Assembly: GCA_021844065.1 (NCBI GenBank)
Contig: JAKBUE010000006.1
Location: forward strand, 40,477-104,476
Direction of reading: 5' to 3'
Length of the DNA: 64,000 nucleotides
From: a bacterium
Lineage (GTDB): Bacteria; Patescibacteriota; Patescibacteriia; 2-12-FULL-60-25
Positions 3,810 to 55,034 of this stretch are shown piece by piece (the stretch's first letter is position 1; each line of letters starts with the position of its first letter). Below the pieces are notes generated by a model. It saw only the letters and a program-made list of their open reading frames with translations. It was not told the DNA's origin and did no database searches. The position numbers and the translations under genes are program-made.

Positions 3810-5345
3810 ATGAAACTTATCCCCATCATCGGACTCGAGGTCCATGCCCAGCTCAAGACGGAATCCAAGATGTTCTGTACTTGCCCCAATGTCGGTGATT
3901 CCGCTCCTCCGAATACCGCCATCTGCCCCATCTGCACCGGCCAGCCCGGAGCCCTGCCGGCGCTGAACGAAAAAGCACTCGAACTCGGGGTCAAAGTCGG
4001 CATCGCCCTGAACTGCGTCATCCCCGACAAAGCCGTCTTCGACCGGAAGAATTATTTCTATCCTGACCTGCCCAAGGGCTATCAGATTTCCCAGTTCCAC
4101 TTCCCTATCGCCTTGAACGGCAGCATCGAAATCGATGTTCCGGGTCAAAAACCACCGCGTGACAGGATAACCATCGGCATCACTCGCGCCCACCTCGAGG
4201 AAGATGCCGCGAAGAATTTCCACGCCGGTGGAGATGAACATGCGACCTACGTCGATTTCAACCGCTCCAGTACACCGCTCATCGAGATCGTGACCGAGCC
4301 CGATATCCGTTCGGCGCTCGAAGCCAAGACCTATCTGCAGGAACTGCGCGCCATCCTCCGCACCATCGGCGCTTCTGACGCGGACATGGAGAAAGGTCAG
4401 ATGCGCTGCGACGCCAACATTTCGCTCCTCGCAGTGGATGACGCCAACATGCCGTTACAGAGCACGCTTAATCCGAAGATCGAAGTCAAGAACCTCAACT
4501 CTTTCCGTGCCGTCGAACGCGCTTTGGAATACGAGATAAAACGCCAAACCAAACTCTACGAATCCGATCTGCTGCCTGTCGGATCCACCAGGGGTTGGGA
4601 CGAGAACAAGGGCGAGACGTTCGAACAGCGCACCAAAGAGACGTCAGCGGATTACCGCTACTTCCCGGAACCTGATCTGCCGCCACAAGAGATGGTCGCT
4701 TTGCGCGAAAAATGGGAAGGCCGTCTGCCGGAACTGCCTGCCGCGAAAAGATCGCGTCTGCAGGAAGAATTCTGGTTCACCCCTGCCGACGCCGCTTTCC
4801 TCGTGGCGAACGACGGTTGGGCCGATTACGCCGAACACGTCATGGGTGAGCTCGGAAGCTGGTTGGAGGCGACTGACGATTCAGACGCTTCTGGCGGAGA
4901 ACTGATGGACGAAAACAAGAAAAAAATCGCCAAACTGGCAGGTGGATGGCTGACCTCGAAACTCGCCGGTCTGATGGCCGAACGCAATATGCAGATCGCG
5001 GATCTGAAGATCGAAGCGGAAGATTTCGCCGAGTTCCTGAAAATCCTCTATAACGGCGAGATCAACAGTTCGAACGGACAGAAATTGCTGCAGCTCATGG
5101 TGGACAACGGCGGTGACCCATCGCACATCATGGAAGAACACAACCTGGGCCAGAACATGCCGGAGGAAGAACTCAAATCCATCGTGGAACGGACCATCCT
5201 CGAGAATCCCGACAAAATCGAACAGATCAAAGCCGGAAAAGTCGCCGTACTCAAATGGTTCGTGGGCACCATCATGAAAGCCACCGAAGGCCGCGCGAAT
5301 CCCAAGAAAGTCGAGGATGAGATAAACCGTAAACTTTCGCTCTAG
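3810..5345 (+). CDS. gatB: Asp/Glu-tRNA(Asn/Gln) amidotransferase subunit B
   Basis: N-terminus 'IIGLEVHAQLKTESKMFCTCPN...YFYPDLPKGYQISQ' is a diagnostic GatB signature; length 511 aa. Confidence 0.95.
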   Translation: MKLIPIIGLEVHAQLKTESKMFCTCPNVGDSAPPNTAICPICTGQPGALPALNEKALELGVKVGIALNCVIPDKAVFDRKNYFYPDLPKGYQISQFHFPIALNGSIEIDVPGQKPPRDRITIGITRAHLEEDAAKNFHAGGDEHATYVDFNRSSTPLIEIVTEPDIRSALEAKTYLQELRAILRTIGASDADMEKGQMRCDANISLLAVDDANMPLQSTLNPKIEVKNLNSFRAVERALEYEIKRQTKLYESDLLPVGSTRGWDENKGETFEQRTKETSADYRYFPEPDLPPQEMVALREKWEGRLPELPAAKRSRLQEEFWFTPADAAFLVANDGWADYAEHVMGELGSWLEATDDSDASGGELMDENKKKIAKLAGGWLTSKLAGLMAERNMQIADLKIEAEDFAEFLKILYNGEINSSNGQKLLQLMVDNGGDPSHIMEEHNLGQNMPEEELKSIVERTILENPDKIEQIKAGKVAVLKWFVGTIMKATEGRANPKKVEDEINRKLSL

Positions 5346-5354
5346 TGTTTTGGT

Positions 5355-5747
5355 ATGGAAAAAGTCAAGCTCGAGCCAGACATAAAAGCCGAACAGCCTA
5401 AAAGTTTCGACAGTTTCGACGACATACCTAAGGATCCGAAGCAAGAGGGTTTGCGCCCTGACCGGCAGTACGCTGGCGGTCCTCCTGACGAAACGATCAG
5501 CGTCGCTGGCAAAAAATACAAAAAACAAGCCGCCCTTACCGCATACATCAGGGACTTCACCGGCCAAACGGCACAAACCAGGCCTTATACGGAAAAAGAA
5601 TATTATTCCCACTCGACCGAAGGTGTCGGACCGGGACCTGGATGGGACTTCAGACGTGGATACATGAAAGACGGATGGGGTATCGATGATGGCGACCCCT
5701 CCCGCTTATCAGACCTTCCTCTTTACGAACTAGTGCCCGTAGAATGA
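5355..5747 (+). CDS. hypothetical protein
   Basis: 130-aa ORF directly after gatB. Confidence 0.4.
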   Translation: MEKVKLEPDIKAEQPKSFDSFDDIPKDPKQEGLRPDRQYAGGPPDETISVAGKKYKKQAALTAYIRDFTGQTAQTRPYTEKEYYSHSTEGVGPGPGWDFRRGYMKDGWGIDDGDPSRLSDLPLYELVPVE

Positions 5748-5755
5748 TCGAAAGA

Positions 5756-6715
5756 TCATCCGCACAACGTGCCGTAATAACCTAACCATTCCCCCACGGC
5801 CTTAACGGCTTCGTCTTTTTCTTTGAACCAAAGGATCCGCTTGTCGCGCTTGAACCAAGTCTCCTGCCTCTTCGCATAACGATGCACGGATCGCTTGGTC
5901 AGCTCCACCGCTTTTTCGAAGGACTCTTCGCCTTTGATGTATTTCAAGAGCTCCCTATAACCGATCGAGGTCATGGCCGGGGCGGATTCCGCTATGCCCT
6001 TGTCTTGTGCTTTACGTATCTCTTCGACCCATCCTTCCTGCAGCATGTTGTCGATAGATCTGTCGATCCTGGCATAGAGCTCTTCACGCGAACGCTTGAT
6101 GCCGACCTGCAGGGCTTCGACCAAGGGTTTACCTATTTTTTTCTGTTTGGTGAACGGTTTGCCCGAAAATGTAGCCACTTCCAACGCCCTGATCACCCGC
6201 CGCGGGTTCTTGAGGTCAACGGCTTGCGACGCATCCGAATCCAACTTCAGGAGCAGATCGACAAGTTCCGACAATGGTTTTTTTTCGTACGCCGCCCTTA
6301 GGGCCGGTTGCGGCGGGATCTGCGGAAACGAATAATTATCGACTAATGACTTTATATATAGTCCGGTTCCGCCGACTATCAGCGGTATGTGCTTCCGCTT
6401 GCTGATCCCACGTATCGCCTTCATCGCCTTGTCGCGCCATTCGGTCACGGTGAACATCTTTTCCGGCTCCAAGAAGTCCATCAGATAATGCGGGACTTCT
6501 TGCACCATGAAGGCGCGTTGCCCTTCGTACTTGCCTCGTTTACCCGAGGGCTTGCCTGTACCGATATCGAATCCCTTGAATATCTGGCGTGAGTCGGCAT
6601 TTATGACTTCCCCGTCAAAAGACTTAGCCAAGGCTAAACCTAAATCGGTTTTTCCGGCTGATGTCGGACCGACCACGCAGACCACTCTGGGCAATGCTTT
6701 GGCCACCCTGCTCAT
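5756..6715 (-). CDS. miaA: tRNA dimethylallyltransferase
   Basis: P-loop 'VVCVVGPTSAGKTDLGLALAKSFDGEVINADSRQIFKGFDIGTGKP' is a typical MiaA N-terminus. Confidence 0.9.
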   Translation of the reverse strand: MSRVAKALPRVVCVVGPTSAGKTDLGLALAKSFDGEVINADSRQIFKGFDIGTGKPSGKRGKYEGQRAFMVQEVPHYLMDFLEPEKMFTVTEWRDKAMKAIRGISKRKHIPLIVGGTGLYIKSLVDNYSFPQIPPQPALRAAYEKKPLSELVDLLLKLDSDASQAVDLKNPRRVIRALEVATFSGKPFTKQKKIGKPLVEALQVGIKRSREELYARIDRSIDNMLQEGWVEEIRKAQDKGIAESAPAMTSIGYRELLKYIKGEESFEKAVELTKRSVHRYAKRQETWFKRDKRILWFKEKDEAVKAVGEWLGYYGTLCG

Positions 6716-6719
6716 GCCT

Positions 6720-8069
6720 TCATGATAACAATCTGCCCATTAAACGCCATGTCTGTGCCTCAAAAATATGTACGGGGACGATTTTACCCACCAATGATGT
6801 ATCCTCGGAGTCGAAAACTGTGAGTTTCAGGTGCTCGGAATTCCCGCTCGCTTTACCGTTCTCGACCTTCTCAACCAACACCTTAACAACCTTATCCACA
6901 TAGGCCTGGTTTTTTGCCAAGACCGTCTTTTCCATGAGCATCTGCAGATCGTTCCATCGATCACGCTTTACCTCCGTAGGCACGTCATCTTCGTATAGTT
7001 TAACCGCCAAAGTCCCGCTCCTTTCGCTATACTGCGCGGTATAAGAAATATCGAATGCGCATCTTTCGTACAGATCGACGGTCTCCGCGAACTCTGCATC
7101 CGTCTCTCCGCAAAAACCCACGATGATGTCGGTGCCTAAAGCCAGATCCGGCTGGCGAGACCTGATCTTGTCCACTATTCCTAGATATTGATCGCGTGAA
7201 TATTTCCTGTTCATCCTTTTAAGCACGGTGTCGGAACCCGCCTGCACCGGAAGATGCAGGAAACGCACCTGCTTTGGGAGACCTAAAGCGTCTATCACCT
7301 CATCCGTCATGTTCGATGGATACGCCGCCGTCCAATTCAGTCTCTCGAGTTTCTTTATCTGATTGATTTCCCACAAGAGCGCCGCGAAATGGTCGCTGTA
7401 TGGATTCCCCTCCGAAAAATTTTCCGGATCAGGCGCACGATATGCATTTACCGCCTGACCAAGCAAAGTCACTTCCAATACCCCAGCATCCGCCAACTCT
7501 CTCGTTTCACGCAGGACATCTTTCACCGATCTGTTGCTCTCCAGCCCGCGCGCGTAGGGAACGACGCAATAAGTGCAGAAATTATTGCACCCTGTCTGTA
7601 TAGTCACATAAGCCTGCGCCGAAGGAAGACGTAAAGGTCTTATCTTGAGATAATCCGTTTCCGTCCCGCTTCCGTTGACCAATTCCGGCCGCAACTCCGC
7701 GATCCAGCGTGGCAAGTTGACCATGTCGCGAGTCGGAAAGAACAAATCCACATACTGCAGGCGTTTCCTTAGCGCTCCATCGTGGTCCCTTCCGGCCATG
7801 CATCCGGTGACGGCGACGATCAATCCAGGGTTCGTTTCCTTCAGCTCCTTATAATCCTTCATCTTACCGAAAATCCTTTCCTCTGCGCTTTGCCTGACGG
7901 AGCAGGTGTTCATCAGGATCAGGTCGGCCTCGGCCTCGGCCTCCGTCGCGCTGAATCCGATCTCTGACAGCAAACCGGCGATCCTTTCGGAATCGTTCTT
8001 GTTCATCTGACAGCCGAAGGTGACGATATGGTATTTAGGCATGCAGTTACGGTTGATGAAAACTATCAC
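6720..8069 (-). CDS. miaB: tRNA-i6A37 methylthiotransferase (radical SAM)
   Basis: 'YHIVTFGCQMNKNDSE...LILMNTCSVR' is the MiaB MTTase N-domain, followed by a radical-SAM 'CNNFCTYC'. The true start is probably MPKY at about 8039. It is adjacent to miaA. Confidence 0.9.
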   Translation of the reverse strand: MIVFINRNCMPKYHIVTFGCQMNKNDSERIAGLLSEIGFSATEAEAEADLILMNTCSVRQSAEERIFGKMKDYKELKETNPGLIVAVTGCMAGRDHDGALRKRLQYVDLFFPTRDMVNLPRWIAELRPELVNGSGTETDYLKIRPLRLPSAQAYVTIQTGCNNFCTYCVVPYARGLESNRSVKDVLRETRELADAGVLEVTLLGQAVNAYRAPDPENFSEGNPYSDHFAALLWEINQIKKLERLNWTAAYPSNMTDEVIDALGLPKQVRFLHLPVQAGSDTVLKRMNRKYSRDQYLGIVDKIRSRQPDLALGTDIIVGFCGETDAEFAETVDLYERCAFDISYTAQYSERSGTLAVKLYEDDVPTEVKRDRWNDLQMLMEKTVLAKNQAYVDKVVKVLVEKVENGKASGNSEHLKLTVFDSEDTSLVGKIVPVHIFEAQTWRLMGRLLS

Positions 8070-8856: not shown

Positions 8857-10124
8857 TTCAGTTCCTCTTCTATCGCCAACAGTCGGTTGTACTTTTCCAC
8901 CCTTTCAGAGCGGGATAACGAACCCGTCTTGATATGTTCCGCCCCGCTTGCGACGGACAGATCGGCGATAAACGTATCGTCCGTTTCGCCGGAACGATGC
9001 GAAACGATGACCGCAAATTTCGCCGCTTGCGCCATCTTGATGGCCTCTACGGTTTCGGTCAACGATCCTATCTGATTCAGCTTAATGAGGATCGCGTTAG
9101 CCGCCTTCTCCTTGATGCCGCGCGCCAACCGTTCGATGTTCGTGACGAAGAAATCATCTCCCACGATCAAAGATTTCTTTCCCAACAAAGGCAAGGATTT
9201 TTTCCATGCTTCCCAATCGTCTTCAGCGAAAGGATCTTCGATCGAGATCAAGGGGTATTTCTTCTGCCACTCCTGATAACGCTTCGTCAATTCATCGGCA
9301 GAATATTCTTTCCCGCCCTCAGCCTTGAAGATATATACCTGGCGCTTCGCGTCATAGAATTCGCTCGAGGCCACGTCCGTCGCGAGCGCGATTTCCGAAC
9401 CCGGCTTGTAGCCAGCTTGCTTTATCGCCCGCACCAGCAACTCGAAAGCGTTCTCGACGGTCTGCAATTTTGGCGCGAATCCTCCTTCATCACCTACCGT
9501 CGTGGCGAATCCGTTCTCTTTGAGCATCTTGGCCAAGACGTGAAAGGTCTCCGCTCCGGCGCGTACTCGCTCCGAAAACTTCTTCTGCAGGGGCATAAGC
9601 ATGCATTCCTGTACGTCCAAAGACCAATCCGCATGCGCTCCGCCGTTCAGTACGTTCATCATCGGTACCGGCAGACCGGCTTTCTTCTTGAATTCGAAAG
9701 TCTGGCGCAAAGATTTCCATAACGGCATCTTGCGGTGTACCGCGACAGCCTCGGCCAACGCTAAAGAGACCGAAAGTATGGCGTTCGCGCCTAAACGTGA
9801 TTTATTCTTCGTGCCGTCCAGCTCGATCATCACATGATCGATGTCCTCTTGTCTTACGGCGTCTATCCCCATCAGGACAGGGGCGATGATTTTATTCACG
9901 TTCTCGACGGCTTTCAACACACCCTTGCCGCCATAACGCTTACCGCCGTCACGCAATTCCAAGGCTTCATGCACGCCTGTCGATGCGCCGGAGGGGACTT
10001 TAGCCTCGGCAGATGCACCAGACTGCAGCGTAACGCGACAGGCTACGGTAGGATTGCCGCGCGAATCCAAGATTTCACGCGCCAAGATAGAAGATATTTT
10101 TGATGATTTCGGCATATTTTTCAT
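8850..10124 (-). CDS. eno: enolase
   Basis: 'ILAREILDSRGNPTVACRV' N-terminus and 'SHRSGETDDTFIADLSVA' active-site region. Confidence 0.95.
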   Translation of the reverse strand: MKNMPKSSKISSILAREILDSRGNPTVACRVTLQSGASAEAKVPSGASTGVHEALELRDGGKRYGGKGVLKAVENVNKIIAPVLMGIDAVRQEDIDHVMIELDGTKNKSRLGANAILSVSLALAEAVAVHRKMPLWKSLRQTFEFKKKAGLPVPMMNVLNGGAHADWSLDVQECMLMPLQKKFSERVRAGAETFHVLAKMLKENGFATTVGDEGGFAPKLQTVENAFELLVRAIKQAGYKPGSEIALATDVASSEFYDAKRQVYIFKAEGGKEYSADELTKRYQEWQKKYPLISIEDPFAEDDWEAWKKSLPLLGKKSLIVGDDFFVTNIERLARGIKEKAANAILIKLNQIGSLTETVEAIKMAQAAKFAVIVSHRSGETDDTFIADLSVASGAEHIKTGSLSRSERVEKYNRLLAIEEELKK

Positions 10125-49843: not shown

Positions 49844-49920
49844 GGACGCCTAGCTCAGTTGGTTAGAGCGTCTCGTTTACACCGAGAAGGTCAGGGGTTC
49901 AAATCCCTTGGCGTCCACCA
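49844..49920 (+). tRNA. tRNA-Val (anticodon UAC)
   Basis: GGACGCC acceptor, D-loop AGTTGGTTA, anticodon stem UCUCG/CGAGA with loop UUUACAC, GGTTCAAATCC T-loop, CCA encoded. Confidence 0.9.
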
Positions 49921-50032: not shown

Positions 50033-50620
50033 CTAACGTTTCTTACTCCCCATCATTTCCTTATATTTCTCGCAAGTCGATTTTACATTCTCCAGTTCTT
50101 CCGCAAATTTCTGCTGAAACGACAGATAATATCCGGCGTCCAACTTAGTCCAGACATCTTTCGACTCAAACGGTAAAAGTTTAGCCTCCGCTTCTTTAGT
50201 CTTTTTCCATAGCCTCTCCAAGACTGACTGCACATTCGGATCCGAGAATTCCTCGACTAAAGCACCGACTTCCTGCATATCTTTTTCGCGCTTTTTGACC
50301 ATCTCATCCAATTCTTTTTTCCCCTCTCCGACCATCATCAAGACTTCATATCCTGCGTTGGCCCGCAACAAGACTTCTCGCAGATCTTCCGGCGCCACCG
50401 CATCACGCAAATCCTGCGTGGCCGCCTTTCCTGCCAAACCGACGATGAATTCCGCTGCCCTGACTAAACTCTGTTCACGCTCCTGTTGCCAGCCTGCCAT
50501 GATCTTTGGATCGTTCGCGAACGGCTTATCTTTCAACGAAGCCAGCCTCGCATCAGCAGACGCAAGCATGCGCTGATAATGCTCTTGCGGGCTCAATGTG
50601 GATTGTTCGGGATTAAACAT
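50033..50620 (-). CDS. hypothetical protein
   Basis: 195-aa K/E-rich ORF. Confidence 0.5.
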   Translation of the reverse strand: MFNPEQSTLSPQEHYQRMLASADARLASLKDKPFANDPKIMAGWQQEREQSLVRAAEFIVGLAGKAATQDLRDAVAPEDLREVLLRANAGYEVLMMVGEGKKELDEMVKKREKDMQEVGALVEEFSDPNVQSVLERLWKKTKEAEAKLLPFESKDVWTKLDAGYYLSFQQKFAEELENVKSTCEKYKEMMGSKKR

Positions 50621-50784
50621 ATTGAGAGCATCTTATCCGAAGCGGCAATTCTTGACAAAAGCAGCTTCCCCCCGGCTCCGCAACAGCAGAACAGCGGGTA
50701 GTCATTCCGCTGTTTCAGTTTAGATCCGTAGTCACCGAACCGGTTATTAGGCTGAAGGAAAGGACATCAGTGTCCTGGCTAGGG

Positions 50785-51117
50785 TTAAAGGTGCTGGCGT
50801 AAGGTCAACTTGCACCCATCCAACAGGACAATTGTCTCCCTCACGCAGTCGACGACTGAATACAGAGCACCGTATTCATCCGGCAAGTAATCGGCGAAAT
50901 TATCCGCCGCTTCGGTCGACCACTCACGGGCATATCGCCCCGGGTCGTAACCGACTTGCTCGAACCCCGGGCACTCATTCTTCCCCTTGCTGTCGATCTG
51001 CACGACGAGTCTGTCGCTCAGGACTTCGCACCCCACGATTGCCTTTGCGTGCCCGTCGTCACCAGCAAGATCCACGACTGCACAGTGTTCCGCTAAGAAC
51101 TTCTTTACGTTTTCCAT
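50785..51117 (-). CDS. hypothetical protein
   Basis: 110-aa ORF. Confidence 0.45.
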   Translation of the reverse strand: MENVKKFLAEHCAVVDLAGDDGHAKAIVGCEVLSDRLVVQIDSKGKNECPGFEQVGYDPGRYAREWSTEAADNFADYLPDEYGALYSVVDCVRETIVLLDGCKLTLRQHL

Positions 51118-53106
51118 ACATCCCTCCTCTTCCGTATCCGACCTAAGTCAGATGCAAGAGAGGATGCGGGACGTAGAGTAACGTGCCCGCTCCAGAAGAA
51201 TATGCGATGGACCGAAGTCCTTTCCTTTGCGGATTTACCCCGCATCGGATCTGATGTGCCGACGTTTCCTGAAGCCGTCGGTCACAGGAACCATGGGCTC
51301 TACCTCTGCGCTGTTCGGACGCAGCGGATTTTTCGTTCAGCAGCGCCTCTCCAGGAGGATGCCAGGAACGCCCGTGGAACCTAGTTGAAAGCAGCGAGAC
51401 CTTCGCTACCCCGCTTTAGCCGTCGCACCGGCTAAGCGTCATCTGTCTCCGTAGCTGCTGGCCAGCGCCGGAGGTTCTCCTTAGATGGAAGTTGGTTGCC
51501 GAGACTTCCTTCCATGGCCGGTGTTGCCGCAAGAGCATTGCCTAAGGCTGGCGTCAGATGATCGCCGCAACCCGTAAAGATCGGCTTTCGATCCTTGCGG
51601 CTTGCGGTAATCAGAAACTATTTTTTTCTGCCCTCTTCCGTCTCCGATGTCGCCATCAGCTGCGGGAGAGGATGCGCGAGTTCGGAGTAACCGAGCTCGC
51701 GCTCCAGGAGAGAAACGATGTGCCACCGACTGACCTGCAATTTAGCAGCGCCGGTCAACACTTGGTGCCGCGGACACCTCCCTCAGCCTCAAGTCGAGGT
51801 CCTGTTAGGTTGGAGGTGTGCGCACACCTCCTTCGGGAACCACTCTGGGCCCCACGACGCATGGCTGTCGATTCAGCTTTGCGCCGTACACAATCTGGAG
51901 ACCATTGCCCCAGTGCGTATACGGGGTTTCCGTTACGCATTCGCCTACCCGCGCCGACCCACGGTGTAACCGTTAGGCGGACCAACGGATCGGGGGACTC
52001 CCCGAAGCAGACGACAAATGGTTGTGCACCACCCGGTCCTCGCACAGACTTCCGATGTTCAGAGGTCTATGTGAGGACCGGATTATCGATTATCCAAAGT
52101 GCTTTTCCCCCCTTCCATCCGGGACGTATGACGTTCTGGCCGGGAGAAGGCGTGCGAACCGGAGTTACCCAGCTCGCACGACACGAGAGGATGCACTGAC
52201 GAAGACTTATCTACGCAGACTTAGGTCCTTTCGGCCCTATGCCCTTGCAGACTCCCGCGGTCACCCGCAGGTTCGGTGGCAAACATCGCAAGCAGTGGCC
52301 TGCCGCTCGCTGACGATTCCCTCCTCGGGTTTAATGATTCACCCCACGAAGCTTGGCTGGAGCATCCAGTGCGGCCAGACTCCGCCGGATCCAGCAGGGG
52401 CCAAATGAAGGGCCGCACACCGCCGAATCCGTAACGTTGGAATTTGAGGTTCAACTGAATTTGGTCAGGTCCCTCATCTGACGGCGCCGTTTTGGGTACC
52501 GATTTAACGGTCCCGGATTAGGTTTTGCGGCGCGGTCGGACGAAGGACCTGATTTTTCCAGGTGCCTCATCTTTTTACTTGAAGGTTCAAACCGTTTCTC
52601 ATCCTCGAACAATCGTAATCTATCACAAGTCAAAATATTTGTCAAGAGCTACATTACATAATTATATATTTGATACTAAATTTGCATATTTTATTGAATA
52701 TTTATGTATAATATTTTTCTACGTTAACACGCTATAAGAAAAGATAAATTCTGTCAGTCTAACCATTGACAAAAAAATAAAATTACGCTATATTTTTTTG
52801 CGTAATCTGGCACAAGTCGTTTTTCGACCACCCAGGCTACTCGCCCTTACTTATCCCATCTACACGCCCAGCTATCCCCCATTAGCAAGGAACTTCCTGC
52901 GACGTCCGTCAAAGATCGGACAAAGTGCGACGACCAAAACCTTGTCCAAGGTCGCATGTCCACGCAGGAAGGAGGTCCAAATGGGAAGCGGAAGCTGAGG
53001 CAATACCCCACTTAGCCTTTCAGGCGGTGGGGTTTGTCGTATCTGATGACACAAAAAAGCTCAAAAAAACGCCTTTGCTGAACCATGAATCTTAAAAGCT
53101 TAAACG

Positions 53107-53862
53107 CTAATTTTTCCCGAATTCCGGCAAATCCTCTGCACCTTTCCAAGCCAACCCGAACAAAATGCGGTATGTATCGGCTAAGACCTTATTTTCCGCG
53201 ATGACCCCTGAAACTTTCCCCTTGAAAGAGACCATAGCGACTTTATCGCCGTAGATGATCACATCACCGAAAAATTCACCCAATTCAGCCGGCAATAGCC
53301 TCGCCTCTACGCCTTCTCGAACCCTCGAAACCTTTCCGGCCAAAAGCGCCTGCCCTTTAGCTTTGAATTTCGCGATTATCTTTTGCGCCGATTCAAGTTC
53401 TTGTGCAGAAAAGACATTTTTGACCGCATCTAGATTCGCTATCTCATAGGTCATCTCGGGATGGCTTTCGACCAAATCATGCATTATCGCCTTCAGCCCT
53501 TCGATGCCTTCATAGAATTTTACCGTCGGTCTCTCGCCCTTCCTCATCAGACGCAGGTCTTCGATGACCGCCTCTATCTCCCCCACTTTGCTGGACAGCA
53601 CATTGACCTGCGACCTTCCGAAATCCACCAGTCTTTCCGGCGGTTCCGCGGCGTACAAATTCCTCTTTCCTTTGACTATCGAGGTCATCAGGCCCTTCTG
53701 TACCAGCTGGTCGATGGCGAGATAGGTCGCTGGCCGGGAAAAACCGGATTTTTTCACCAACAACTGGGCTTGAGCTGGTCCGGTCTCCAAAGCCGCCATA
53801 TATACAGCGACTTCGCTTTCGTTAAGACCGATTGATTTTATGAGACTCCGATAATCAGGCAT
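53107..53862 (-). CDS. TrmB-family transcriptional regulator
   Basis: N-terminal wHTH 'ESEVAVYMAALETGPAQAQLLVKKSGFSRPATYLAIDQLVQKGL' plus a C-terminal TrmB-like domain. Confidence 0.7.
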   Translation of the reverse strand: MPDYRSLIKSIGLNESEVAVYMAALETGPAQAQLLVKKSGFSRPATYLAIDQLVQKGLMTSIVKGKRNLYAAEPPERLVDFGRSQVNVLSSKVGEIEAVIEDLRLMRKGERPTVKFYEGIEGLKAIMHDLVESHPEMTYEIANLDAVKNVFSAQELESAQKIIAKFKAKGQALLAGKVSRVREGVEARLLPAELGEFFGDVIIYGDKVAMVSFKGKVSGVIAENKVLADTYRILFGLAWKGAEDLPEFGKN

Positions 53863-54947: not shown

Positions 54948-55034
54948 TGGTGCGCAGGAGAGGATTTGAACCTCCATGGGGTTGCCCCCGCTAGCCCCTC
55001 AAGCTAGTGCGTATACCAATTCCGCCACCTGCGC
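54948..55034 (-). tRNA. tRNA-Leu (anticodon GAG), type II with a long variable arm
   Basis: GCGCAGG/CCTGCGC acceptor, 3-bp D stem, anticodon stem CUAGC/GCUAG with loop UUGAGGG, variable arm CGGGGGCAACCCC, T-loop GGTTCAAATCC, CCA encoded. Confidence 0.85.

Follow-up and report, generated by a model that had tools for sequence, protein, structure and literature searches.

The 64,000-nt stretch of DNA analysed here, from a Candidatus Uhrbacteria (Patescibacteria) bacterium and referred to below as the window, contains at positions 51118-52640 a segment free of open reading frames (ORFs), located between the start of the minus-strand gene ORF110 (50785-51117) and an AT-rich stretch. On balance, and by a modest measure, we favour the reading that this segment encodes on its minus strand three paralogous non-coding RNA units, highly structured and ~480-510 nt long, which form a co-transcribed tandem array derived from an RNA locus that is linked to Ro60. 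The segment is non-coding, it is built of repeats, its structure is conserved, and it lies in conserved synteny. The best explanation places it in an as yet undescribed family of RNAs found in Candidatus Uhrbacteria and other Patescibacteria.

The ORF-free segment and its repeat structure

An earlier note on this DNA had described the segment as GC-rich and devoid of any credible ORF, and both descriptions hold. The GC content is 0.53-0.61, the ORFs of at least 50 aa within 51118-52640 overlap on both strands, are rich in R, P and S and resemble composition artefacts, and the six longest of them gave no match in a Pfam search. The perfect 20-mer palindrome reported near 51800 (GGAGGTGTGCGCACACCTCC) is indeed found at 51812-51831, as a single occurrence where none is expected by chance. 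The '460-bp AT-rich promoter-like stretch' said to bound the segment does contain promoters, but only ~52600-52800 is AT-rich (GC 0.24-0.37); the remainder, 52800-53060, has ~50% GC and forms a conserved small transcription unit of its own. Compared with dinucleotide shuffles, all thirds of the segment give much the better fold on both strands (z -3.5 to -7.3; 0 of 100 shuffles as good).

The suggestion of a 'large structured RNA' is supported as to kind, since the segment is non-coding, strongly structured and partly homologous to a covarying RNA family, but not as to number. Instead of one 1.5-kb RNA there are three tandem diverged units, a repeat structure that had gone unnoticed. The units, of 508, 481 and 512 nt, each end in a conserved two-hairpin module of ~90 nt, and the start-to-start spacing of the modules is 508 and 478 nt. 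A degenerate pattern for the module has exactly three matches in the window, with none expected by chance, and a module hidden Markov model (HMM) run with nhmmer recovers the three copies with E values of 1e-16 to 1e-20 and no further copy in the 64 kb. The three unit copies have diverged to ~62% mean column identity. No DNA similarity was found between the array and ORF110 or any other part of the window. The possibility that the array supplies silent cassettes, i.e., donors for antigenic variation of the hypervariable ORF110, was rejected at the DNA level on this account, the comparison being of untranslated sequence.

For comparison, related loci (labelled here with L-numbers) were fetched via homologues of the neighbouring TrmB-family gene, via homologues of the TROVE protein, and via one metagenome pattern match. 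Unit 3, the promoter-proximal unit (52104-52611, minus strand; ~508 nt, the boundaries being approximate and taken from the repeat spacing), comprises in order a 5' leader, then a long 5' hairpin whose arms are at 52465-52489 and 52528-52552, a conserved element termed domain X (~52320-52397) and the terminal module, and its minus-strand fold has a z-score of -4.6. Similarity of this unit by blastn to the C-type units of relatives is limited to domain X. Unit 2 (51627-52107, minus strand; ~481 nt) includes a 23-bp hairpin (52033-52081), domain X (~51832-51893), the palindromic hairpin at 51812-51831 and the terminal module; it has a fold z of -7.0, and both its domain X and its module match locus L009. 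In unit 1 (51119-51630, minus strand; ~512 nt; fold z -5.25) domain X is not recognisable, and the terminal module, which is 83% identical to the module of the TROVE-proximal unit in L009, abuts the ORF110 start codon.

Module 3 (52104-52203, minus strand) was identified by nhmmer (E value 6.9e-16), by the pattern match and by the pair counts of its second hairpin. In RNA sense it contains a CAUCC linker, a first hairpin, H1 (GUGCGAGCUGGG/CCGGUUCGCAC), and a second, H2 (CCUUCUCCCGG...CCGGAUGGAAGG). Module 2 (51627-51725, minus strand; E value 2.9e-20), which was also identified by its inverted repeat and by H2 covariation, has a CAUCG linker, an H1 with plus-strand arms at 51674-51685 and 51691-51702 and the loop UUACU, and an H2 at ~51630-51670. 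Module 1 (51121-51210, minus strand; E value 2.9e-18) likewise includes the CAUCG linker, H1 and H2. Within the 3' strand of this H2 (GGAAGAGGAGG, the complement of 51122-51133) lies the ORF110 Shine-Dalgarno sequence, at a distance of 6 nt from the ATG, and the same arrangement is found in L007. Across all loci there are 19 module instances. The H2 stem includes a nearly invariant sequence (CCUCUCCCG/CGGAAGAGG), and 6 of 15 H2 pairs show compensatory changes. The H1 stems have wholly different sequences among module subtypes, yet the pairing is always kept around a U(U/C/A)ACU-like loop; because the MAFFT alignment of H1 is out of register across subtypes, this covariation is reported from reading of the sequences only.

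Domain X consists of three helices, P1 (CGGNG/CNUCG), P2 (GGCUN/NAGCC) and P3, with the pairs read from the sequences. In the minus sense P1 has a G·U pair in 11 of 11 aligned sequences (by eye), and the fifth pair of P2 covaries as G-C, U-A or C-G. Besides units 2 and 3, domain X is present in relatives, both in their A-type and C-type units and in that unit of L009 which is nearest to TROVE.

Related loci and the Ro60-linked RNA

Nine related loci share one layout (L007/L008, L009, L011, L015, L017, L020, L022, L023 and L024): TrmB, a small transcription unit that runs convergently and includes a mini-ORF and a terminator, two divergent promoters in an AT-rich region, an ORF-free stretch of 0.65-3.2 kb, and a TROVE/vWA_Ro60 gene on the same strand as TrmB. 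The TROVE protein weakly matches the NCBIfam family 'RNA-binding protein Rsr'. TrmB is found at eight of the nine TROVE loci; at L024 the array and TROVE occur with no TrmB beside them. Scans with window-type patterns matched one other genome, that of a sister strain, where this locus gave the single match on the 1.52-Mb contig. A first metagenome scan matched nothing, and a broader module pattern yielded one true metagenome contig, L020. Pattern matches in a viral sequence (L001), a genome (L005) and a metagenome (L021) were discarded as chance matches in unrelated sequence.

The core of the relatives' RNA is ~430 nt long and common to A-type and C-type units. Over nine sequences RNAalifold predicts 107 pairs, with 95.9% of cells paired and 32 compensatory pairs, as against 13.9±2.6 in shuffles (0 of 500 reach it) and 7-12 in slid controls. 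Domain 1, a long bipartite stem of ~100-135 nt that closes a variable insert, has 12 compensatory pairs versus 6.9±1.5 in shuffles (0 of 500) in an alignment of 11 sequences that includes L015, L022 and L023. The covariation that the earlier note had proposed to look for is thus strong in the relatives' core and modest in the alignment of window-type units. Substitutions in homologous arrays show no 3-nt periodicity (147 versus a null of 148.8±4.2), and of 73 indels only 15 have a length divisible by 3.

R1, the covariance model built for domain 1, gave 16 matches, all of them upstream of TROVE on the TROVE strand and together covering all nine TROVE loci; true instances score 28-115 bits. Domain 1 thus co-occurs with TROVE. 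The model also matches L024, which had been left out of its training, with E values of 8.6e-10 and 2.6e-8, and as TrmB is not adjacent at that locus, the RNA tracks Ro60 and not TrmB. Matches in distant Patescibacteria are located at 5084-5172 and 5677-5808 of L024, 5537-5628 of L022, and 5535-5783 and 5846-5943 of L023. R1 has no match in the TROVE-less TrmB loci (the window, the sister strain L002, L013, L018 and L019). With filters off, the region 50600-53100 gave hairpin-only matches of at most 12 bits, and domain 1 is absent from the window. An HMM of the whole core matches L022 (E value 4e-15) and has no match in the window.

What the window retains of the relatives' family is the promoter, the module in three copies and domain X in two; the terminal module, the conserved synteny of promoter, TrmB and small RNA, and domain X are all in place. 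By blastn, the window units resemble those of relatives in the modules and domain X only. In L009, whose TrmB is ~70% identical, a window-type unit with a unit-1-like module (83%) and a unit-2-like domain X stands next to TROVE, and this unit type is therefore older than the loss of rsr.

In the C-type units (L011 ~7340-7500, with equivalents in L017, L020 and L009), a UGCUUGG sequence can pair, by eye, with either an upstream CCAGGCA or a downstream CCAAGCG. The alternative helices, a 5' hairpin and helix 1 of domain 1, would be mutually exclusive and might act as a conformational switch. Locus L007 has in addition a near-perfect hairpin of ~75 nt (8942-9016) directly upstream of the TROVE start, which is absent from the other loci and gave spurious matches to microRNA models (E value 7e-6).

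Promoter and strand of the RNA

A sigma-70-type promoter is located on the minus strand at 52617-52645, with the -35 box TTGACA (52645-52640), a 17-nt spacer carrying a TG, and the -10 box TAGATT (52622-52617). Both hexamers are intact, with 10 of 12 matches to the consensus and the TG present, and transcription of the array would start near 52610. In an alignment of seven loci the -35 sequence (TTTGTCAAG) is invariant in all seven, as are four letters of the -10 box (T, A, G and the last T), and the same element, as TTGACA-N17-TAGAAC or TATAGT, precedes the RNA in L022 and L023. The promoter is one of two conserved divergent promoters of the AT-rich region (52640-52800, GC 0.24-0.37). As it is directed leftwards into the array, the RNA is on the minus strand.

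The strand was also examined with RNAalifold in six blocks of the aligned arrays of L020, L017, L011, L009 and L007, using column shuffles as the null. The z-scores are -8.2 to -10.6 in the sense of the TROVE strand and -2.5 to -7.6 on the opposite strand. The two strands differ in energy by -21 to -30 kcal/mol in five of these blocks, as against -2 to -8 (standard deviation 4-5) from composition alone. The consensus fold of the window-type units likewise has a z of -8.5 in the minus sense versus -5.9 in the plus sense. Based on these three independent lines, i.e., the conserved promoter, the consensus-fold test and the fold of the window-type units, the RNA is on the minus strand of the window, which is the strand of Ro60 in relatives.

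The plus-strand sense had been favoured at first because of three features read by eye, namely G·U pairs in the module, a Ro-binding-like motif (UGGNCGAAG) and a T-arm-like hairpin in relatives, and it was overturned by the consensus-fold test, the promoter and the window-type fold. Functional plus-strand RNAs, antisense to ORF110 or rsr, each starting with the module and bearing Y-RNA-like motifs, are in our estimate very improbable. Such RNAs would account for a conserved U·G pair in the outer H2 stem and for G·U pairs in the inner hairpin of unit 3 (both by eye), for sequences resembling the Ro-binding motif (UGGACCGAAG at ~51207, and GACGAAG twice), and for a T-arm-like GGAUG-UUCGAAG-UAUCC in relatives; the plus-strand fold z-scores are also similar to those of the minus strand. 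However, there is no upstream plus-strand promoter, the ORF110 coding sequence abutting unit 1 there. The consensus-fold test favours the opposite strand by roughly 3.5-5 standard deviations in five of six blocks, the window-type units' fold does the same, the GNCGAA motif lacks positional conservation, and the invariant G·U pairs of domain X and domain 1 exist in the minus sense alone.

Comparison with known RNA families

A cmscan of the whole window against Rfam 15 at gathering thresholds, the check that the earlier note had recommended, returned three tRNAs and nothing in the segment. GOLLD, ROOL, HEARO, OLE, group II introns, RNase P and tmRNA, all named in that note, have no gathering-score match. 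A permissive Rfam scan of 50600-53150 gave a best E value of 0.87, to microRNA hairpin models, Rfam scans of the relatives' arrays produced no family match, and ARAGORN found no tRNA, tmRNA or tRNA-like gene in the segment. Full-text literature searches on Ro60, TROVE and Y RNAs in Patescibacteria, or the candidate phyla radiation (CPR), and on structured RNAs in Uhrbacteria turned up no description of these RNAs.

We consider it scarcely credible that the array is a known large RNA family, a degraded gene, a dispersed repeat such as a miniature inverted-repeat transposable element, or a CRISPR-like array. Its size, GC content and hairpins do resemble those of large non-coding RNAs superficially, and the repeat period is regular. 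However, neither the segment nor the relatives' arrays give a gathering match (the best regional E value being 0.87). The 'degraded gene' of the earlier note finds no Pfam match inside the segment, no codon periodicity in the relatives' arrays and indels that mostly break the frame. As regards a dispersed repeat, the module is confined to the array in the window and to one locus on the 1.52-Mb contig of the sister genome. Unlike the repeats of a CRISPR array, those found here are ~90 nt long and diverged, the intervals of ~400 nt share partial homology, and the scanned neighbours include no cas domains.

Large RNAs such as OLE, GOLLD, ROOL and raiA offer the nearest resemblance in general character: they too extend over hundreds of nucleotides with many helices and covariation, are lineage-restricted, and occupy ORF-free, GC-rich gaps in compact genomes. 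They differ in that there is no Rfam match here, the tandem array with a shared terminal module has no counterpart among them, and the context is a TrmB/Ro60 locus in Patescibacteria. Precursors punctuated by stem-loops, such as repetitive extragenic palindromic (REP)-type hairpins and the processing stems of rRNA and tRNA operons, also have a stable hairpin repeated at each segment end, which could set processing sites or protect 3' ends. The module found here is, in contrast, locus-specific and not genome-wide, its stem sequence is nearly invariant, and processing at it is putative.

The bacterial Y RNAs (Yrn1, YrlA and YrlB) are non-coding RNA partners of Ro60/Rsr encoded near rsr on the same strand, and same-strand proximity to the Ro60 gene was the criterion by which they were found (Chen et al. 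2014, PMC4201824). The RNAs of the nine related loci share the strand of a Ro60 gene no more than ~4 kb away, and those of the window do not. More precisely, the relatives' RNAs lie within 0.1-3 kb of the Ro60 gene and are probably on the same transcript, several RNA genes can lie side by side at one rsr locus, as do yrlB and yrlA in Salmonella (PMC4201824), and in size and outline the relatives' domain 1 resembles a Y RNA. No sequence or covariance-model similarity between Y RNAs and this family was found, and the repeated two-hairpin module that ends the units is not known from Y RNAs. Y RNAs are roughly 100-200 nt long, and the units here are 0.5-0.9 kb. No consistent GNCGAAN0-1G motif and no tRNA-like domain are detected here, the window units lack domain 1, and their genome apparently lacks Ro60.

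A regular-expression scan for GNCGAAN0-1G on both strands of eight loci gave scattered matches, none of them positionally conserved across units; GUCGAAG is found close to the inferred 5' end in L023 and in no other locus. Read by eye in RNA sense, the UUCGAA-containing loops of relatives fall short of a canonical T-arm. The Rfam tRNA model has no match at E≤10 in the window array, at E≤5 in L011 and L007, or at E≤0.1 in L015 and L022-L024, its sensitivity to true YrlA being uncertain. By analogy, the relatives' family is best seen as a candidate Ro60 partner RNA that may act like Y RNAs, while differing from Y RNAs and YrlA in size and apparently in motif and tRNA-like domain.

Apparent absence of Ro60 and the status of the window units

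No TROVE gene was found by tblastn in the 64-kb window, and no TROVE cluster lies on the 1.52-Mb or 0.6-Mb contigs of this genome among the best 120 of 296 homologues. The genome thus apparently lacks Ro60. The best explanation is that the lineage of the window lost Ro60 together with the Ro60-linked core and kept the accessory 3' portions, which would now be triplicated. With Ro60 and domain 1 lost, the window units probably act independently of Ro60.

To compare strains, two haplotypes were aligned, namely the window with L003 versus L002, L004 and L006. The array is ~96-99% identical between them (alignment read by eye). ORF110 and its downstream spacer (50620-51117) have roughly 55-60% DNA identity, with flanks of ~99%, and this divergence amid nearly identical flanks looks like an allele or cassette replacement. 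Within the array, unit 3 has a hypervariable patch at ~52320-52475 with many substitutions and 1-nt and 3-nt indels, and elsewhere there are scattered single differences. In the minus sense 31 helix changes between haplotypes keep pairing and 29 break it in an unbiased count, as against 20 kept and 35 broken in the plus sense; these counts are at most a weak sign of structural constraint. A count based on the alifold structure, which seemed perfect, was discarded as biased.

Several of these findings weigh against three functional minus-strand RNAs. The hypervariable patch of unit 3 and the near parity of 31 kept and 29 broken changes fit weak constraint. Homologues in other species are detectable for just ~30-40% of each window unit, the module plus domain X. 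The 5' halves, being lineage-specific, lie beyond covariation analysis, and in the window-type alignment the covariation term is near 0. Strand signals within the module are mixed: a conserved C·A mismatch in the minus sense is a U·G pair in the plus sense, and the inner H2 stem of unit 3 pairs better in the plus sense. Finally, as Ro60 and domain 1 are apparently absent, the Ro60 lead from relatives is not directly transferable to the window.

A rival reading is that the array is a relic, a non-functional remnant of the Ro60-linked RNA locus whose leftover 3' portions drift after the loss of rsr and domain 1, transcribed or not. In this respect the 'decayed element' of the earlier note may hold in part, as the array does lack both the Ro60-linked core domain and the Ro60 gene of relatives. 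A relic would fit the lack of TROVE within the scope searched, the lack of domain 1, the hypervariable patch, the similar numbers of kept and broken pairs, and the fact that most of each unit has no homologue elsewhere. Yet in copies at only ~62% mean column identity the module persists, folding is strong (z to -7.3) and a consensus fold is shared (z -8.5); the promoter has both its hexamers intact, and the same unit type coexists with rsr in L009 and hence is not a decay product. In addition, small CPR genomes rarely retain junk such as 1.5 kb. We accordingly regard a relic as rather unlikely. Because three old copies share a fold, the promoter is intact and the same unit type stands beside rsr in L009, and also because compact CPR genomes rarely keep junk, units that function without Ro60 are clearly preferred.

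A further possibility is that the array is a cis-acting 5' untranslated leader of 1.5 kb controlling ORF110 (rsr in relatives), with the ribosome-binding site sequestered in H2 and perhaps with structural switching. The ORF110 Shine-Dalgarno sequence within the 3' strand of the module 1 H2, here as in L007, is what such a leader would predict, there is no convincing terminator between units, and one promoter would serve both RNA and downstream gene. We nevertheless judge it improbable. Modules 2 and 3 are not followed by an ORF, the last module in TROVE loci is ~130 nt from the TROVE start and does not include its Shine-Dalgarno sequence, and 1.5-3.2 kb of repeated, covarying units of 0.5-0.9 kb far exceeds known bacterial leaders. 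For unit 1 alone, a leader role can coexist with the array of structured RNAs that we favour.

Under the favoured reading, of an array of three RNA units, the sigma-70 promoter at 52645-52617, probably under the control of the adjacent TrmB-type protein, would drive one precursor of ~1.5 kb running from ~52610 through units 3, 2 and 1 into ORF110. The module would most likely mark the unit ends, as a processing structure, as protection of 3' ends or as a protein-binding site, and that of unit 1 would also sequester the ORF110 ribosome-binding site. Transcription and processing of the array, its regulation by TrmB, and any protein partner or function are in each case predicted from these features.

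Neighbouring genes and elements

ORF110 (50785-51117, minus strand) encodes an acidic protein of 110 aa. It is the first same-strand gene downstream of the array and occupies the position of TROVE in relatives. The protein shares 49% identity with the product of an ORF lying between the array and TROVE in L007, and had no match in Pfam, NCBIfam or PADLOC. A word-index search returned the query alone; the family comprises six clusters in 1.84 billion representatives, and exhaustive HMMER searching gave five relatives. A single-sequence AlphaFold model was unreliable (predicted local distance difference test score of 46). On the minus strand a hairpin followed by a U-rich run is seen by eye after ORF110 (~50680-50715), and the next gene, ORF195 (50033-50620), has an apparent promoter of its own, TTGTCA-17-TAAGAT (50630-50658); the array-ORF110 transcript may therefore end before ORF195.

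On the other side, between the array promoter and the 3' end of TrmB, lies a small plus-strand transcription unit (52766-53040), outside the array and within the conserved locus. Its promoter, TTGACA-17-TATATT (52766-52794), would give an RNA of ~240 nt with a strong Shine-Dalgarno sequence, a five-codon mini-ORF MGSGS* (52981-52998) and a terminator hairpin (53006-53040). Both mini-ORF and terminator are found again in L007, L011, L017 and L020 (MGSGS), L015 (MGSGR) and L022 (MSSGG). The unit has no match in Rfam.

The TrmB-family helix-turn-helix regulator (53107-53862, minus strand) was assigned by Pfam PF01978 (E value 5e-11) and by its synteny at eight of nine TROVE loci. It is encoded identically in GCA_027425155.1 and in two Logan assemblies, and its homologues are annotated as Candidatus Uhrbacteria or Patescibacteria. 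DNA of this organism was seen in SRR13189623, SRR13201255, GCA_027425155.1 and JAJYXM01. TrmB may regulate the divergent promoters. A direct repeat of 18 nt, CGTAATCT(AT/GG)CACAAGTC, occurs at 52614-52631, where it overlaps the -10 box of the array promoter, and at 52801-52818, where the small plus-strand unit begins; a TrmB-type regulator may use it as an operator. The locus is flanked at 1-2 kb by tRNA-Val(TAC) (49844-49920, plus strand) and tRNA-Leu(GAG) (54948-55034, minus strand), with no sign of a link to the array.

Implications

Knowledge of Ro60 in bacteria comes from a few model species, in which its partners are small Y RNAs. The data suggest that in Patescibacteria, with their tiny genomes, Ro60 is linked to much larger, heavily structured RNAs that are arranged in tandem arrays with their own conserved promoter and, at eight of the nine TROVE loci, with a regulator gene next to them. 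The range of RNAs known to partner Ro60 would thereby become wider. It is seldom that a new large structured RNA is discovered, and such discoveries have often opened up new biochemistry. Here concrete RNAs are available for testing, with defined domains, covariance models and candidate protein partners.

More tentatively, and as a possibility that we would not yet back, these RNAs may form a new class of large modular structured RNAs of Patescibacteria, in which the Ro60-linked core is a larger CPR counterpart of the Y RNAs and the window units are accessories that became autonomous and functional after the loss of Ro60. In that case the core, i.e., domain 1 with its ~430-nt surroundings, would be several times the size of a Y RNA and would lie within arrays of 0.65-3.2 kb, and the window units might serve, for example, as a scaffold for another protein or as a processed stable RNA controlling ORF110. 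The window also offers a natural experiment: with Ro60 and the core apparently gone and the accessory units triplicated, it could separate the Ro60-dependent from the Ro60-independent parts of the RNA.

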